The position numbers were made by a program, and so were the translations under genes. Below, piece after piece: positions 12,752 through 36,357 of a stretch of DNA of 64,000 nt (position 1 is the stretch's first letter; each line of letters opens with the position of its first letter). Source of the DNA: Shigella phage SH7. The stretch lies in the sequence record KX828711; one strand, written 5' to 3'. The notes under the pieces are model-generated. The model ran no database searches. It had not been told where the DNA came from and was given only the letters and a program-made list of their open reading frames with translations.

Positions 12752-12784
12752 GTTCTTCTCACTTGGTTAATGATTTATACTCCG

Positions 12785-12798
12785 AGCCATCCTTGGCT
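12785..12798 (-). repeat. palindromic CCATCCTTGG-core hairpin element
   Basis: AGCCA-TCCT-TGGCT; the same 10-nt core recurs at 16236, 33592 and in variant form at 13841. Confidence 0.5.
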
Positions 12799-12803
12799 TT
12801 AAA

Positions 12804-13805
12804 TTACTTAATTAACTGTAAAGCTTGTTCCAAACGATCAAGGCGATTAACAGATTCTTCCCAAATCCTTTTAGCCTGCTCATATTCTTTCTGCGCTTTA
12901 TTAGAAATTTCTAGAACTTCTTTATAAGCTTTTTCTAGTGCAATAACTTCTGGACGAATTTCTACCGGTTCAGGTGAATCGTCAAGATTATCCATTAGTT
13001 CTTCAAGGGTAGTTTCTTCTTTAGGAGTATTCACAATTTCATCACATTTTTGCTGGTAAATTTCTTTATCAGTCGGTGAGTACGCACACTTTACTTCACG
13101 AAGACTAATTATAATTTTATATCCTTCCCAACCGCATATATTCTTAAAAGGATATGTATGAATATTTTCTACTGTTTCCATACAAAGTAATGCGGTCTCT
13201 AATTGACGAGTTATAGTGCTAGCAATTGAGAAAAATTTATTAATGTTCTTTTGGTTAGTTTCTGGTGTAAAAAATCCATAATTCACAAAAATAGCTACTT
13301 TATTTTTATCAAGTTCATATTCTTTTATGATAATCATATCAGAAGCCAAAGGATGAATTTGACGATAATCGCCATAACATAATTTAGAAGCTGATTTTAG
13401 AATTTGTTTCTTAAAAAGTCTGAAATTACTAATCCAACGACGAGTAAAAATATTCTCAGGGTCTTCTTTATTATTAAGATGATAAGAATTAACATCACCG
13501 AACCAATTATATCCTACTACATCTTTGGTTCGTTTAATTTCTTTCCCAAAATTACCAAGAATATCCCGATTAACCAAATATGAAAGAAGACGAGACTCTT
13601 TAAAGGTTTTCTTGATAACATCTTTATCTACACGGCTAGAAATTTTACGAATTTCATGAATAAATTTAGTAGAAGAAACAATACTTGCATCAACACTATT
13701 GAGCCATTGATTGATAATAGAAAGAACGATATTTTGACCAAACATCGGTATAGCTTTATCATCAATAACGCTATTGAATGATTTGATATATTCGTTACGA
13801 GTCAT
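12804..13805 (-). CDS. coiled-coil-tailed protein, paralog family member 2
   Basis: 333 aa from the Met preceded by a GAGGAG RBS; the upstream ORF extension is translated promoter sequence; motif FRLFKKQILKSASKL. Confidence 0.65.
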   Translation of the reverse strand: MTRNEYIKSFNSVIDDKAIPMFGQNIVLSIINQWLNSVDASIVSSTKFIHEIRKISSRVDKDVIKKTFKESRLLSYLVNRDILGNFGKEIKRTKDVVGYNWFGDVNSYHLNNKEDPENIFTRRWISNFRLFKKQILKSASKLCYGDYRQIHPLASDMIIIKEYELDKNKVAIFVNYGFFTPETNQKNINKFFSIASTITRQLETALLCMETVENIHTYPFKNICGWEGYKIIISLREVKCAYSPTDKEIYQQKCDEIVNTPKEETTLEELMDNLDDSPEPVEIRPEVIALEKAYKEVLEISNKAQKEYEQAKRIWEESVNRLDRLEQALQLIK

Positions 13806-27050: not shown

Positions 27051-27264
27051 ATTTAACTTCCTCACCAGTACATAAATCATATTCAACTAAACGAATAGGT
27101 TCATGAATGCCATATCCCTGAACAGAAATTTCTGTCGTAGGATAAATTCCACTAATATCACCCATATTCCACGCTTCATTAAATTGCTGTTCGCCTGAAT
27201 TACTAAACCATTCTGCGAAAGCATTTAGCACATCTTTAGAACCTTCAATAATTATCTTTGCCAT
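27043..27264 (-). CDS. hypothetical small protein
   Basis: 73-aa ORF; start overlaps the upstream stop. Confidence 0.5.
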   Translation of the reverse strand: MAKIIIEGSKDVLNAFAEWFSNSGEQQFNEAWNMGDISGIYPTTEISVQGYGIHEPIRLVEYDLCTGEEVKYD

Positions 27265-27626
27265 TACAGACTCTCAGTAAAGGTACGAGCGATAACGTCG
27301 CGCTGCTGTTCCGGAGTCAGAGAGTTAAAGCGAACTGCATAACCGGATACACGGATGGTCAGCTGCGGATATTTTTCCGGATGCTTAACTGCATCTTCCA
27401 GAGTTTCACGACGCAGAACGTTAACGTTCAGGTGTTGACCACCTTCAATTTTAACTGTAGGTTGTGTTTCAATTTCAATTTCACGGGCGTGCAAACCATA
27501 GAAAATTTCTGGGTCTACAAAAGAGTCCTCTTTAAAGGTTTTAGAGACAATAATTCGCGCTTGAATACCATCTTCAAAATAAATAGTACCTTTATGCGTG
27601 CCTTCAAGAATTTGATATGCTTTCAT
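27264..27626 (-). CDS. autonomous glycyl-radical cofactor (GrcA/YfiD-like spare-part protein)
   Basis: 120 aa; C-terminal glycyl-radical fingerprint [17 protein letters not shown]. Confidence 0.8.
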
Positions 27627-27633
27627 ATAAACC

Positions 27634-27963
27634 TCAATTAGAAAATAAATTTATCCAAGATTGTTCTTTAATTAAAAATGGCTCAGAATCATATGCCATT
27701 AAACTTTGCGTAATTAATCCTTTAAAAGGTCCATCAATAAATTCCATGGTAAAATATGGAATTTTATTCATTAGCCGTGCATTAGGAGCCGTGCACAAAA
27801 CTCTGCATCCTTTGAATACGCCTTTTTGTAATTTGTATTGCTTAGGATAAAATTCACTTAAAATGTTATTTTTTGCCAAAATTTCAAAATGATTCACCAA
27901 TTTATTTTTAATAGTTTTTGGTGAAAAATAAAGATATTCAAAAAGTTGCGCATCTGTCATCAT
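27634..27963 (-). CDS. hypothetical protein
   Basis: Start at internal Met pair with ATGA overlap to the upstream stop. Confidence 0.5.
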
Positions 27964-28499
27964 TGCATTCCGATTACGAAAAACTGTGGACGAGTAATAC
28001 CACCAATACAACATTTAATATTACAGCAGCAGTGTACAGTGTCAATATGGACGCTATAAATCTTATCCATATCAGGAGATTTGACAGGCTCATCAATTAT
28101 ATACAAAATTCGCGAAAGCGATAAACCTCTGAACTTGCTTCCTTTATTACCAATAAAACTGCGCACAGAATCAGTAAATAAACGAAAACGTATATCATCA
28201 TTAGAATAACGCGAAAATTCCTTTTTAATGTTATTTGCAGAAATTTTAGCGTAAGCTGAAGTATTAGAAAGAACAATAACTGTTCCGCCATCATACAGCC
28301 AATTAGCAGCAAAGTTAGTCACAGCAATTGATTTACCGGATTGACGTCCACCATCTAGTCGAAGTGTGCAATACTGTTTAAGTAATTCTTCAAATGGCGG
28401 AATATATTCGTTTTTACAAATTTCTTCTACTCTAGCATCAGAATGGTGTGTAAAAGCATTCATCAGGGATAGATAAGGACCAGTTAAAAATGTTCTCAT
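27960..28499 (-). CDS. small P-loop NTPase with Cys-rich C-terminus
   Basis: 179 aa; Walker A GGRQSGKS, Walker B ILYIIDEP, C-terminal HCCCNIKCC. Confidence 0.55.
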   Translation of the reverse strand: MRTFLTGPYLSLMNAFTHHSDARVEEICKNEYIPPFEELLKQYCTLRLDGGRQSGKSIAVTNFAANWLYDGGTVIVLSNTSAYAKISANNIKKEFSRYSNDDIRFRLFTDSVRSFIGNKGSKFRGLSLSRILYIIDEPVKSPDMDKIYSVHIDTVHCCCNIKCCIGGITRPQFFVIGMQ

Positions 28500-28639
28500 T
28501 TCTTCTCTCTAAGTTTGGGCCATTCCGTGGCGCATGAATTGTCCATTTCTGTATTTACCCATTACCGCGCTTGGGCTCGACCTTATTACAGGTTGGCGGG
28601 AATCCCTCATAGAATCATGAGGTCCAGGTTGTTCCCATA

Positions 28640-29113
28640 TTATTTGAACGATTTAACGTACTGAATAGAACCTTTACTATTCACAAAGGCAATTTTACCA
28701 TTTTTGTTATACATAGTAGCAGTACGTTGATAGCCATAAGTTTGTTTACCAGATTGATAACCAACTAATGCGAAATTATCTTCACCCATTTTATTCTGTT
28801 TAGCGCGAATGCGTTCATGACCATGTGCCATAAGAACCTTAGCATCACCGGTTGCAATGGATCGACGAGTTTTTTCATCTTCAACTGTATTAACAAAGTC
28901 GTCAAATGAATCAAATTTAGCATGAGATTTATTATACAGTTTTCCATCTACTGCATAATTATATCCCTGTACATCCATCTCAACTTCTGTACCATCATCC
29001 AGTACAGCAGTGATTTTCTGTCCTTTTTTAAATTTCAAAAGATCAGTAAAAGATTCAGCAATAATTTGAGAATTAATAGCTGCTTCAGTAATAAATTCTT
29101 GATAGGTTTTCAT
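28640..29113 (-). CDS. internal head protein (capsid-targeting-sequence protein), IP locus
   Basis: 157 aa; N-terminal MKTYQEFITEA matches the T4 IP capsid-targeting sequence with an LxE protease site. Confidence 0.7.
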   Translation of the reverse strand: MKTYQEFITEAAINSQIIAESFTDLLKFKKGQKITAVLDDGTEVEMDVQGYNYAVDGKLYNKSHAKFDSFDDFVNTVEDEKTRRSIATGDAKVLMAHGHERIRAKQNKMGEDNFALVGYQSGKQTYGYQRTATMYNKNGKIAFVNSKGSIQYVKSFK

Positions 29114-29129
29114 GTGTTTCCTTTAATTT

Positions 29130-29447
29130 TTATTCTTTAGGGAAGTTTTTAGAATATGCATCATAAAGCTTATTTCCAATACGGCGGAAAACTCTAGCCG
29201 CAAAACGATTTTCTGGGTTTTTAATCATGATTTGCATCATATAAGTACCCGCGTCAGAAAGAGCTTCTTCATAGTACCCGTTAATTTCTTTAAGAGTCCT
29301 ACGTTTACCACCAGGACCATCAACAGTGATTTTCCATTTACCTGTAGAAGTGCGACTTGGCGGCTCAACTTGTTCAATCCAGATATAACCGCCTTCTACA
29401 CGTTGTCCTGCAGCAGATTCTGCAATAAATTCTTGATAGGTTTTCAT
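29130..29447 (-). CDS. internal head protein (capsid-targeting-sequence protein), IP locus
   Basis: 105 aa; N-terminal MKTYQEFIAES capsid-targeting sequence; between the IP gene and lysozyme e. Confidence 0.7.
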   Translation of the reverse strand: MKTYQEFIAESAAGQRVEGGYIWIEQVEPPSRTSTGKWKITVDGPGGKRRTLKEINGYYEEALSDAGTYMMQIMIKNPENRFAARVFRRIGNKLYDAYSKNFPKE

Positions 29448-29501
29448 GTGTTTCCTTTAAATATTTTAATTAGTAATTTATCTATTCAAGTAACTGTGAA
29501 T

Positions 29502-29531
29502 ATACTATCACAATTCCAAGAGAAAGTAAAC
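29502..29531 (-). promoter_or_regulatory. early-type promoter (GTTTAC..TAGTAT)
   Basis: Reverse complement GTTTAC..18 nt..TAGTAT upstream of the IP genes. Confidence 0.5.
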
Positions 29532-29535
29532 AGCT

Positions 29536-30504
<969 letters not shown>

Positions 30505-30508
<4 letters not shown>

Positions 30509-30993
30509 TTTAATTTCCTGCATTCAGTGATAAAGTTATTTAAATTTTGAGTATATTTCTTTTCATCAAAAATCTTTTGTTGTCTGCGTAGCCGCCATGG
30601 CATTTCAATGAACGTGTACCATATCCCAGATAATATTGCTGCTGTAAAAATATTAACAAGTATGGTTAAAAGAATCCAATCTCCTATTCTGTCCATTGGA
30701 TTTTTTATAAAAAAGTAAAATACGAATGATGTCACAGGAAGACTAATAATATACCACAGAATCATAATTTTATCTGTGAACCAATCAGCGTTCGTTAACT
30801 TAGCGCGACCATTATGAATACACACGAATTTATCATCTGTTATAATAGATGGCTTAGCTGCTTGATATCCCATTCTAAACTCCCTAATCAACAAATTTTT
30901 CATATCTTCGGAACAACCATTCCAGTCAACTCTATCAACTGAAATGCCATCATCCCCATCATCTAAATCATACCAGCGAGTTTTTAAAATCAT
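30505..30993 (-). CDS. membrane protein, junction-motif family member
   Basis: 162 aa; two C-terminal TM segments; ends FITECRKLK. Confidence 0.6.
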
Positions 30994-35335: not shown

Positions 35336-35411
35336 TGGTCGAGGCAGTAGGGATCGAACCTACGACCTAGGACTTAGAAGGTCCTTGCTCTTCCTTCTGA
35401 GCTATGCCCCG
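35336..35411 (-). tRNA. tRNA-Arg (anticodon UCU)
   Basis: Hand-folded cloverleaf: 7-bp acceptor, anticodon loop CUUCUAA, T-loop TTCGATC, encoded CCA. Confidence 0.8.
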
Positions 35412-35415
35412 TAAT

Positions 35416-35491
35416 TGGGGTGACCGATGGGAGTCGAACCCATGACTACGAGAATCACAATCTCGAGTTCTACCAACTGAACTACGGCCAC
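35416..35491 (-). tRNA. tRNA-His (anticodon GUG), tentative
   Basis: Cloverleaf with anticodon loop UUGUGAU and discriminator C73, but no encoded G-1. Confidence 0.55.
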
Positions 35492-35605
35492 ATTAATACC
35501 TACTCCAACAATCAAGATGTCTTCACACGAAATTAAGAGAAGAGTGATCAGTTCAACCCCGATAATCGCGTCAAGTAGATATTAATGTGACAGTTGTCAC
35601 AAATT

Positions 35606-35680
35606 TGGCGGACGTGATAGGATTCGAACCTATAACCAATCGCTTAACAGGCGATCGCTCTGCCATTGAGCTACACATCC
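35606..35680 (-). tRNA. tRNA-Asn (anticodon GUU)
   Basis: Cloverleaf, anticodon loop CUGUUAA, T-loop TTCGAAT, discriminator G, CCA encoded. Confidence 0.65.
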
Positions 35681-35684
35681 AAAT

Positions 35685-35771
35685 TGGTGGGGAGTGATGG
35701 AGTCGAACCACCCGAGTCGCAATGACAATGGATTTACAGTCCACACCGCTACCTCTACGGGATAACTCCCC
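35685..35771 (-). tRNA. tRNA-Tyr (anticodon GUA), long variable arm
   Basis: 87 nt; perfect 7-bp acceptor, anticodon loop CUGUAAA, extra arm, discriminator A, CCA. Confidence 0.6.
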
Positions 35772-35784
35772 TTAATTCTTAATT

Positions 35785-35859
35785 TGGTGGCCCTAGGTGG
35801 AATTGAACCACCATCTGGCGATTATGAGTCGCTTGCTTGAACCTTCCAGCTACAGGGCC
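35785..35859 (-). tRNA. tRNA with CAU anticodon (Ile2-type or Met)
   Basis: Cloverleaf, anticodon loop CUCAUAA; occupies the position of T4 tRNA-Ile. Confidence 0.7.
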
Positions 35860-35860
35860 T

Positions 35861-35936
35861 TGGTGCTGATTGACGGAATCGAACCGCCGACCTTCTCATT
35901 ACAAGTGAGTTGCTCTACCTACTGAGCTAAATCAGC
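35861..35936 (-). tRNA. tRNA-Thr (anticodon UGU)
   Basis: Matches my recollection of T4 tRNA-Thr (GCTGATTTAGCTCAGTAGG...); anticodon loop CUUGUAA. Confidence 0.85.
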
Positions 35937-35941
35937 AAAAC

Positions 35942-36031
35942 TGGCGGAGGCAATAGGATTTGAACCTATGAGTCGCCGGAGCGACTGCCGGTTTTCAAGA
36001 CCGGTGCATTAAACCACTCTGCCACGCCTCC
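35942..36031 (-). tRNA. tRNA-Ser (anticodon UGA), long variable arm
   Basis: 90 nt; anticodon loop CUUGAAA, discriminator G, CCA encoded. Confidence 0.8.
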
Positions 36032-36033
36032 AG

Positions 36034-36107
36034 TCTCCATACAAGGATTTGAACCTTGGACCTCCTGATCCCAAATCAGGCGCTCTACCAAACTGAGCTA
36101 CACGGAG
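36034..36107 (-). tRNA. tRNA-Pro (anticodon UGG), CCA not encoded
   Basis: Anticodon loop UUUGGGA; 3 end abuts tRNA-Ser with a 2-nt spacer. Confidence 0.8.
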
Positions 36108-36117
36108 TAAATTAAAT

Positions 36118-36191
<74 letters not shown>

Positions 36192-36196
36192 AAATT

Positions 36197-36283
36197 TGGT
36201 GCGAGAAGTGGGACTCGAACCCACAAGGAAATCATTCCGCAGCATTTTAAGTGCTGTGCCTTTACCAATTTGACCATTCTCGC
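36197..36283 (-). tRNA. tRNA-Leu (anticodon UAA), long variable arm
   Basis: 87 nt; anticodon loop CUUAAAA; CCA encoded. Confidence 0.8.
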
Positions 36284-36284
36284 G

Positions 36285-36357
36285 CTGGGAATAAAGGACT
36301 CGAACCTTTGCATCCTGGAATCAAAATCCAGTGCCTTACCAACTTGGCTAATTCCCA
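36285..36357 (-). tRNA. tRNA-Gln (anticodon UUG), CCA not encoded
   Basis: Anticodon loop UUUUGAU; 1-nt spacer to tRNA-Leu. Confidence 0.8.

Follow-up and report, generated by a model that had tools for sequence, protein, structure and literature searches.

In this study we examine a guanine-cytosine (GC)-rich gap of 140 nucleotides (nt) at positions 28500-28639 of a 64,000-nt stretch (hereafter, the window) of Shigella phage SH7 (sequence record KX828711), which is part of a Tequatrovirus, a close relative of T4. The gap lies between a gene for an internal head protein (IP) and vs.8. We consider it probable that it encodes, on the minus strand, a conserved and independently folding RNA: an autonomous functional module that is neither translated nor left over from the endonuclease gene denV. 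The structured element (28549-28636, minus strand) comprises the helices P1 and P1a, a three-way junction of P2, P3 and P4, and the 3' strand of a pseudoknot, and about 17 of its unpaired junction and loop bases are nearly invariant among the phages that carry it. T4 is among the most thoroughly annotated viruses, yet the element has apparently gone unrecognized there, masked by an over-long annotation of Vs.8.

The original prediction, made from the letters of the window alone, had described the gap as free of open reading frames (ORFs), unusually GC-rich and marked by nested inverted repeats, a description that proved accurate. The GC content is 0.46-0.49 versus ~0.29-0.41 in the flanks, and the repeats are GGGAA (28632-28636) with TTCCC (28598-28602) and, inside them, CCTCAT (28617-28622) with ATGAGG (28605-28610). 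No ORF of at least 50 amino acids (aa) occurs in 28500-28639, and the two smaller ones, of 33 aa on the minus strand (28509-28610) and 49 aa on the plus strand, are not conserved.

A conserved core with covarying helices

In the RNA, all of which is read from the minus strand, the outer repeat forms P1 (GGGAA/UUCCC) and encloses the hairpin P1a (CCUCAU/AUGAGG). The 5' side of P1 carries an internal loop, CAACCUGGA (28623-28631), in which we propose CUG (28625-28627) as the 5' strand of the pseudoknot. P1 abuts P2, which opens a conserved 50-nt core (28552-28601). P2 consists of 4 base pairs (bp), formed by GCCA (28594-28597) with U 28561 and GGU (28557-28559), and has a conserved bulged G at 28560. 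P3 pairs ACCU (28590-28593) with AGGU (28580-28583) across the loop GUAAUA (consensus ACCU-[GUAANA]-AGGU, the loop being GNRA-like). The junction CGA (28577-28579) leads to P4, a 2-bp helix (GC 28575-28576 with GC 28567-28568) that closes a loop of 5-7 nt, and the junction GGUAA (28562-28566) completes the three-way arrangement. Just past the core, CAG (28549-28551) is the proposed 3' strand of the pseudoknot, by homology with Karamvirus CCUG(G)/(U)CAGG. Between the core and the ribosome-binding region of vs.8 stands a further hairpin, GCCA-CGGAA-UGGC (28519-28531), with the vs.8 start codon 20 nt downstream of it. The consensus of this 3' hairpin, GCCA-NGGAA-UGGC, is kept in T4-like phages, with a compensatory variant (GCCG...CGGGC) in S16. 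It occurs once in the window, where no further copies of either the hairpin or the core were found.

The core aligns without gaps over 50 columns in 30 diverse sequences (MAFFT). In this alignment 92.7% of cells pair, versus 76.2% in column shuffles, and the covariation score is 0.415 versus 0.101 in shuffles, a value reached by none of 500 shuffles; when the register is slid, all scores are at or below 0.075. From the same alignment we built a covariance model, R1, whose single match in the window is the core itself (68.6 bits), a score that follows by construction because the window sequence is in the seed. Among 92 phage loci, R1 finds 83 copies of the core and none of the spurious matches that sequence patterns had returned. 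With 66 distinct sequences aligned by R1, pairing reaches 97% of cells; three pairs of P2 occur as 3-5 pair types with not a single cell unpaired, and the variable pair of P4 is CG in 53 sequences, UA in 11 and GC in 2. Among the cells that depart from Watson-Crick pairing, G-U outnumbers A-C by 22 to 2, which places the pairing on the gene-sense strand and so points to RNA.

Outside the core, P1 covaries between lineages (GGGAA/UUCCC, GGGAG/CUCCC, GGGG/CCCC, AAAGG/CCUUU, AAAGC/GCUUU, AAAGA/UCUUU, GAAUG/CAUUC and GAGUG/CACUC). P1a shows a compensatory double change, CCUUAU/AUAAGG, in L254 (L numbers label the loci compared in the analysis, of which L004 is T4, NC_000866, L034 is KP17 and L028 is P545). 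The short inner hairpin CCUCAU/AUGAGG is the form found in Tequatroviruses; a longer insert, CCUCUCCUCAUGAACGUCGNGUCCUCUGAGUGA, is present in most other T4-like genera. In those rows of the long form in which both gaps are placed (L061, L066), CUCA/UGAG of this insert has become CUA/UAG by paired deletion.

The pseudoknot is clearest in 28 long-form sequences, where the internal loop on the 5' side of P1 pairs with the stretch past UUUACAU, 3' of P2. Of the 84 cells of its three central pairs, 82 hold a base pair, and each of the three alternates between 2-4 pair types (CG/UA/AU/GC). The pseudoknot measures 3 bp in the window and T4, whereas slur02 has 4 bp and other lineages have 4-7 bp; the window pairing of 28625-28627 with 28549-28551 is proposed by homology with these sequences. 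By eye, loop and tail can also be paired, by sequences that are not related to one another, as CCAGC/GCUGG in rV5, GUGAGGG/CCCUUAC in L055, GGGUA/UACCC, GGGAG/CUCCC and ACAAGAA/UUCUUGU in the L205 group, and CGGA/UCCG in the L040 group.

These data also bear on the idea that the sequence acts as DNA, for example by anchoring recombination, as the target of an endonuclease or by serving as an origin, and that its RNA fold is incidental. The element is the constant edge of a hypervariable locus, and in KP17 and P545 genes have been inserted beside it together with a duplicated flanking hairpin, as might be expected of such an anchor. However, the wobble asymmetry points to a single-stranded sense transcript, the compensatory changes preserve pairing rather than sequence, and the orientation relative to flanking genes or tRNAs is kept in every context examined. 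We therefore regard a DNA-level function as very improbable.

The element is non-coding and is not a remnant of denV

In an alignment of the window with T4, PP01, slur02 and A6-6, an element of ~130 nt is nearly unchanged and begins right past the stop codon of whatever gene lies upstream, which is denV in T4 and ipIV in the other four. The T4 reference treats it as the opening 40 codons of Vs.8, there 219 aa long (NP_049732). This annotation, which starts from an ATG within the element and adds 40 residues, raises the question of whether the sequence is conserved as an N-terminal extension of Vs.8 or, in the window, as the 33-aa ORF, which is ATG-started and in the same frame. The T4 frame is kept open only via a 9-bp tandem duplication (CTTATAGAG); in the window a TAG stop stands in that frame ahead of the vs.8 ATG, and slur02 has no ATG for the extension and differs by indels of 6 nt and 1 nt. 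Indels of 6, 1 and 9 nt in the five-phage alignment, together with the TAG stop of the window, rule out a conserved reading frame. Moreover, ORF extents upstream of vs.8 vary between phages (175-199 aa), the rV5-like and other versions of the element have no such sense-strand ORF, and the PHROG profile of Vs.8 begins at residue 3 of the 179-aa form. We accordingly reject both the extension and the small ORF, a coding role being highly unlikely in view of the stop codons, the indels and the lack of frame conservation. As judged from these alignments, the element is non-coding, and the start of T4 vs.8 (L004 1754-2413; NC_000866 64253-64912) is probably placed 40 codons too early, inside the element. 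The site with the TAG in the window is 28497-28511, and 179 aa is the common length of Vs.8.

The absence of a denV-like gene, which the original prediction had noted, stands: across the whole 64-kb window, tblastn with T4 DenV returned no match at E <= 10, and the best match with slur02 DenV had an E of 3.1. The gap had been taken to lie where denV would be, instead of that gene, and possibly to be what was left of it or of another deleted gene. The T4 gene order (vs.8, denV, ipII, ipIII, e) speaks for this reading, in that denV lies between ipII and vs.8 in T4 and this phage lacks it. T4, however, has both denV and, directly after its stop codon, the same ~130-nt element, so that the element is additional to denV rather than a substitute for it. 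In slur02-type relatives denV is found elsewhere, between e and ip10 and ~0.9 kb from the gap. The searches with DenV find nothing in the gap, which is more conserved than the flanking genes, and this conservation follows base pairs. We thus give almost no weight to an origin as a decayed gene and reject the denV remnant.

What has happened to denV itself can be seen when the window, PP01 and slur02 are aligned. The gene is a clean presence/absence cassette of ~0.4 kb, located in the 88-nt spacer between e and ip10 (29448-29535). In slur02-type relatives it is inserted between ...CAGTTACTTG and TTTAAAGGAAACA, and the site is empty in the window and PP01. Its absence is therefore a common cassette polymorphism and is unrelated to the gap. 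The AT-rich bases left at the empty site loosely resemble the first and last nucleotides of slur02-type denV, and may be a deletion scar.

Distribution among phages

A search with the 151-nt spacer matched 1078 phage records (blastn). For most sampled genera of enterobacterial T4-like phages, including that of T4, the element lies just 5' of vs.8 regardless of what precedes it (denV, ipII, ipIV, ip7 or others). It stands upstream of a vs.8 homologue in Moonvirus, Karamvirus, Dhakavirus, Gaprivervirus, Gelderlandvirus and Winklervirus, and in Jiaodavirus and Marfavirus one additional small gene separates the two. Among 12 loci gathered by Vs.8 protein similarity, with no RNA pattern used, 11 contain the element; Serratia phage WSPA has vs.8 and no element. 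In the Klebsiella phages KP17 (L034 381-430 and ~860-890) and P545 (L028 397-445), which represent this last arrangement, the 3' hairpin GCCAAGGAAUGGCCCC is duplicated ahead of an inserted small gene and of vs.8, which looks like a gene insertion via a duplicated flanking module.

Beyond the T4-likes, the core recurs in phage groups not related to them. A 45-nt core is 91-93% identical in rV5-like Vequintaviruses (blastn), where it lies within a 253-nt intergenic region ~580 nt upstream of a transfer RNA (tRNA) cluster. Two records labeled as Campylobacter phages, A141 and C7 (MG065672 and MG065658; 135-141 kb), carry a core that is 89-93% identical, like that of rV5-like Escherichia phages, with which their sizes also agree; the hosts they are assigned to may be incorrect. 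Further groups came from scanning IMG/VR and metagenomes with sequence patterns: 46-kb Klebsiella siphophages (of the DP01 and KP591P1 type), 350-kb jumbo phages (of the 7t3 and Munch type), Pseudomonas phage pf16, and uncultured phages from saline water and from marine (TARA) samples.

Most loci outside the T4-likes have same-strand tRNAs within ~40-600 nt, and within tRNA clusters the element has the orientation of the tRNAs. It begins a few nt past a tRNA in L246, L222, L201/L270, L275 and L258. In pf16 it has gene 58 on one side and, on the other, an annotated Rho-independent terminator with a promoter next. A terminator follows the element within ~5-30 nt in pf16, L222 and L057, and within ~30-50 nt in L126. 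Across the neighborhoods of the different phage groups there is no common protein family, nor is there a vs.8 homologue outside the T4-likes; the sole common “ORF” cluster results from translating the motif in antisense.

In some phages the core is present twice. The two copies are in tandem in L065 (829-878 and 915-963), L067 (9020-9069 and 9134-9181) and L060 (5202-5251 and 5091-5138). In L260 they are ~2.3 kb apart (2459-2507 and 158-205), and P3 of the second copy is capped by a GUAA tetraloop. The 96-kb uncultured phage contig of L057 has, besides the motif, a group I intron (RF00028, 54 bits) at 12784-13079.

As to bacteria, we reject an origin of the sequence from the host, no match having been found in 5,426 complete E. 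coli genomes (blastn). A bacterial scan with a 22-nt pattern gave, among the 120 matches listed, mostly GC-rich chance matches and one plausible case. This one, the only credible bacterial instance among the matches listed, is on a contig of Motilimonas eburnea YH6 (L126 1258-1310; 40 bits); it has a longer P3 (ACCUAG-UUCA-ACUAGGU), its terminator is an intrinsic one, and it may lie within a prophage.

A self-contained module or a leader of vs.8

The original prediction had also offered a regulatory RNA structure in the 5' untranslated region (UTR) of the gene at 27960-28499, that is, vs.8. The comparative evidence bears out the structured RNA; regulation of this gene from its 5' UTR is unproven and is not the best-supported reading. 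We favor a self-contained module over a vs.8 leader because of the tRNA and terminator contexts outside the T4-likes, the lack of a common neighbor protein and the tandem copies. Such an RNA would be co-transcribed with its neighbors, here the IP genes and/or vs.8, and would probably be released or stabilized as a discrete small RNA, in the manner of T4 rnaC and rnaD from the tRNA operon. Its invariant junction would make up a putative site of specific binding or of activity, with a partner that many infections by phages of Gammaproteobacteria share, whether a host or phage protein or a small molecule.

The main rival is a cis-regulatory role, because in T4-like phages the element is placed directly 5' of vs.8 with a conserved hairpin. 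Under this explanation the element would be a cis-acting leader of the genes vs.8-vs.7-vs.6-...-vs.4, either as a riboswitch-like aptamer, as an RNA for processive antitermination or as a translational operator, through which a ligand or protein would control how strongly these genes are expressed. It has the orientation of vs.8 throughout the T4-like genera and its hairpin stands 20 nt ahead of the start codon, and the anatomy is aptamer-like, with covarying stems, a pseudoknot and invariant junction bases. Like three-way-junction riboswitch aptamers with a pseudoknot, it measures ~90-110 nt, its stems covary around invariant junction bases, and it has tandem copies sometimes (L065, L067, L060; also L260) and a terminator next to it sometimes. 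A tandem arrangement occurs in some riboswitch classes, and the terminators near the pf16, L222, L057 and L126 copies could act as expression platforms. Further downstream of vs.8, vs.4 is acb2, a gene directed against CBASS, an anti-phage system that relies on signaling by cyclic oligonucleotides (PMC12657218).

An aptamer-like fold with covariation is therefore present, but the steady position of riboswitches in the 5' UTR of a coherent set of genes is not: vs.8 follows the element only in T4-likes, and elsewhere it is followed by tRNAs, or by a terminator and a fresh promoter, with no recurrent gene class downstream. The element also differs from riboswitches in matching no riboswitch family of Rfam 15. 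Nor does the window offer a terminator or an obvious anti-terminator alternative: a scan of 27500-30200 found nothing terminator-like on the minus strand, and no U-run comes after P1a or after the 3' hairpin. By eye, no part of the element shows consistent complementarity to the Shine-Dalgarno region of vs.8, and WSPA carries vs.8 without it. Taken together, we hold a leader function to be rather unlikely. Vs.8 itself gave no clue to function. Its homologues occur in 1008 phage records, and it has a weak similarity to terminase ATPase (PHROG) and nothing above threshold in Pfam, NCBIfam or PDB, which leaves no informative family or solved homologue.

Several observations weigh against an autonomous, independently folding RNA. 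The covariation controls compare shuffles and slid registers and are not phylogeny-aware, and the invariance of AGG, AGCC and CGGTAA was partly imposed by the search patterns. In the window and T4 the pseudoknot is only 3 bp long and P1a is a plain hairpin. A crude test of pseudoknot complementarity, sequence by sequence against shuffled tails, was not significant (median p 0.6). The folding energy of the region is unremarkable against shuffled sequences, with z-scores of -0.01 for the minus and -0.98 for the plus strand, and the comparative structure has -19.0 kcal/mol versus a minimum free energy of -31.3. That there is a discrete RNA species is something we infer from sequence, and the placement in T4-likes, directly 5' of vs.8 with the conserved hairpin by its ribosome-binding region, is how a cis-acting leader would look.

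On the question of circularity, CGGUAA is also kept in the loci found by Vs.8 synteny and in divergent model matches (L126 and the second L260 copy). The covariation of P2 and of the pseudoknot is not circular, because neither was ever in any search pattern. It is this comparative evidence, not single-sequence folding, that sets the region above chance. Outside the long-form group the pseudoknot is likely rather than proven, because of the non-significant shuffle test.

An RNA with ~17 near-invariant unpaired bases, kept across Straboviridae, Vequintavirinae, jumbo phages, siphophages and a Pseudomonas phage, must serve something common to them. Its repeated siting in tRNA operons and in accessory or anti-defense regions suggests transcript processing, RNA stability, a decoy or a sensor as hypotheses, which T4 genetics make easy to test. 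More speculatively, and as a tentative possibility, the T4 element could be the T4 member of a new catalytic or ligand-sensing class of RNA that occurs widely in phages infecting Gammaproteobacteria: a self-cleaving ribozyme that trims tRNA-operon or accessory transcripts, an aptamer for a host metabolic or immune signal, or an anti-defense decoy to which a host factor would bind. The decoy idea fits the position of the element beside IP genes and 1.4 kb upstream of acb2/vs.4, as well as the abiF-type RNAs in related tRNA clusters. These abiF RNAs (RF03085; 45 bits versus a gathering threshold of 37) lie at L205 3624-3655 (-) and L237 140-171 (+), in tRNA clusters of uncultured phages that also carry the motif; the phage copies may be decoys of abortive-infection RNA. 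In practical terms, the analysis yields a probable correction of the T4 vs.8 start, an account of the missing denV as a cassette polymorphism, and a covariance model seed for phage annotation.

Relation to known RNA families

Searches against Rfam 15 (4227 models) gave no match to the element at E up to 10 in the window, 1 in 8 loci and 5 in 11 loci. The searches were working, since they did pick up tRNAs, the group I intron and abiF RNA. We found no description of it in the literature by topic, gene name or sequence string; overlap with a survey of 10,006 candidate phage RNAs (PMC10690425) was not checked. As far as such comparisons of sequence and structure go, the element is a new RNA family, where newness means only that it matches no described family. 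It is not a tRNA, either: ARAGORN reports none here, and the Rfam tRNA models do not match it.

The small stable T4 RNAs rnaC and rnaD (species 1 and 2), which belong to the tRNA cluster, are similar in being non-coding phage RNAs of ~120-140 nt that are co-transcribed with tRNAs, and in non-T4 phages the motif takes a comparable slot in tRNA arrays. However, they have no sequence or structural resemblance to the element. T4 rnaC ends in a tRNA-like T-arm, which the element lacks, and in T4-like phages the element is ~6-7 kb from the tRNA cluster. On comparison, then, we see no relation between them.

The position a few nt past tRNA 3' ends in some phages calls to mind a further explanation, namely a self-cleaving or processing-directing RNA that would cut the polycistronic transcript, freeing tRNA 3' ends and, in this phage, parting the IP message from that of vs.8. 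There is a precedent in the theta ribozymes, minimal relatives of the hepatitis delta virus (HDV) ribozyme that adjoin phage tRNAs (PMC10879173). The likeness extends to the nested double-pseudoknot order of helices: by our own comparison, the order P1 5', pseudoknot 5', hairpin, P1 3', junction domain, pseudoknot 3' matches the HDV topology, and a core this compact, in which many unpaired bases are invariant, would be suited to catalysis. Beyond helix order the likeness fails. The element matches no ribozyme family of Rfam 15, HDV-type models included, and its conserved bases are in another domain, the equivalent of the dispensable P4 of HDV. It has no counterpart of the J4/2 linker or of P1.1. 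In several lineages the linker from P2 to the pseudoknot, which would be the place for the catalytic C, has a length of 0 nt, and the loops of P1a are GAAA or GACG tetraloops, which leave no room for P1.1. Nor is a conserved nucleotide evident at a cleavage site. We reject an HDV-like assignment, and a self-cleaving or processing role of any kind appears quite improbable.

Arbiol et al. reportedly described, in 2010, cassettes of T4-type phages termed PeSL (promoter-early stem-loop). Like the element, these contain stem-loops, are conserved and non-coding, and border gene modules that are shuffled in T4-type genomes. The element differs in that it is much larger, is single-copy, also occurs in non-T4 phages and has no promoter-like site, a scan of the gap having found none.

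Internal head protein genes and the surrounding region

The genes of the IP locus are all on the minus strand (ORF list and profile matches). From the far side, they begin with nudE (30068-30523) and the lysozyme gene e (29536-30030). Two ORFs follow past the e-ip10 spacer: one of 105 aa (29130-29447), which starts MKTYQEFIAE, matches phrog_3966 (E 2.7e-34) and has a homologue annotated ip10 in PP01, and one of 157 aa (28640-29113), which starts MKTYQEFITE. After the gap come vs.8 (27960-28499), which encodes a P-loop nucleoside triphosphatase of 179 aa (phrog_1488, E 2.6e-79), then vs.7 and, beyond it, vs.6 (27264-27626). The stretch 27900-29600 is matched in 715 phage records, and 153 of them have the same arrangement in a single piece at up to 97.6% identity (megablast). 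The GC content of vs.6, a homologue of the glycyl-radical cofactor GrcA, is 46-51%, level with that of the RNA element and much higher than elsewhere in the region.

The original prediction had assigned both ORFs between lysozyme and vs.8 to the IP proteins by their capsid-targeting sequence, and had remarked that their sizes fit neither IPII nor IPIII of T4, as would be expected of a variable locus. We concur on both counts. The ip locus is hypervariable; each ORF has the capsid-targeting sequence, MKTYQEFI(A/T)E, at its N-terminus, with a final Glu as in the context that the prohead protease cleaves, and the sizes of 105 and 157 aa compare with 100 aa for T4 IPII and 193 aa for IPIII. The likeness to IPII and IPIII (77-83% identity) is mainly limited to the first 12-14 residues. 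The shared features with T4 IPI, IPII and IPIII are thus this N-terminal sequence and the locus between e and vs.8, whereas the mature parts of the window proteins are unrelated or weakly related to IPII and IPIII; the weak relation is between T4 IPII and the 157-aa ORF (33% over 79 aa, E 1.7e-4). The 157-aa ORF is a full-length member of DUF7412 (Pfam, E 5.7e-96), matches phrog_3155, “internal virion protein” (E 6e-102), and has homologues annotated as ipIV in PP01 and Ip4 in RB68. Because they are homologues of named IP families (DUF7412/phrog_3155 and phrog_3966), both ORFs are, by their profile matches, ordinary members of the alternative families IpIV and Ip10, which are common in other Tequatroviruses.

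Two further matches of the IP proteins fall below threshold and concern curli inhibitors: IpIV to CrliSynInhib (NCBIfam, E 0.002) and Ip10 to CsgH (Pfam, E 0.09). They could be due to chance or to a shared beta-sandwich fold.

Elsewhere in the window, ARAGORN places 11 tRNAs in a cluster at 35336-36357 (Arg, His, Asn, Tyr, Met, Thr, Ser, Pro, Gly, Leu and Gln). T4, by comparison, has 8 tRNAs, with segB inserted among them.

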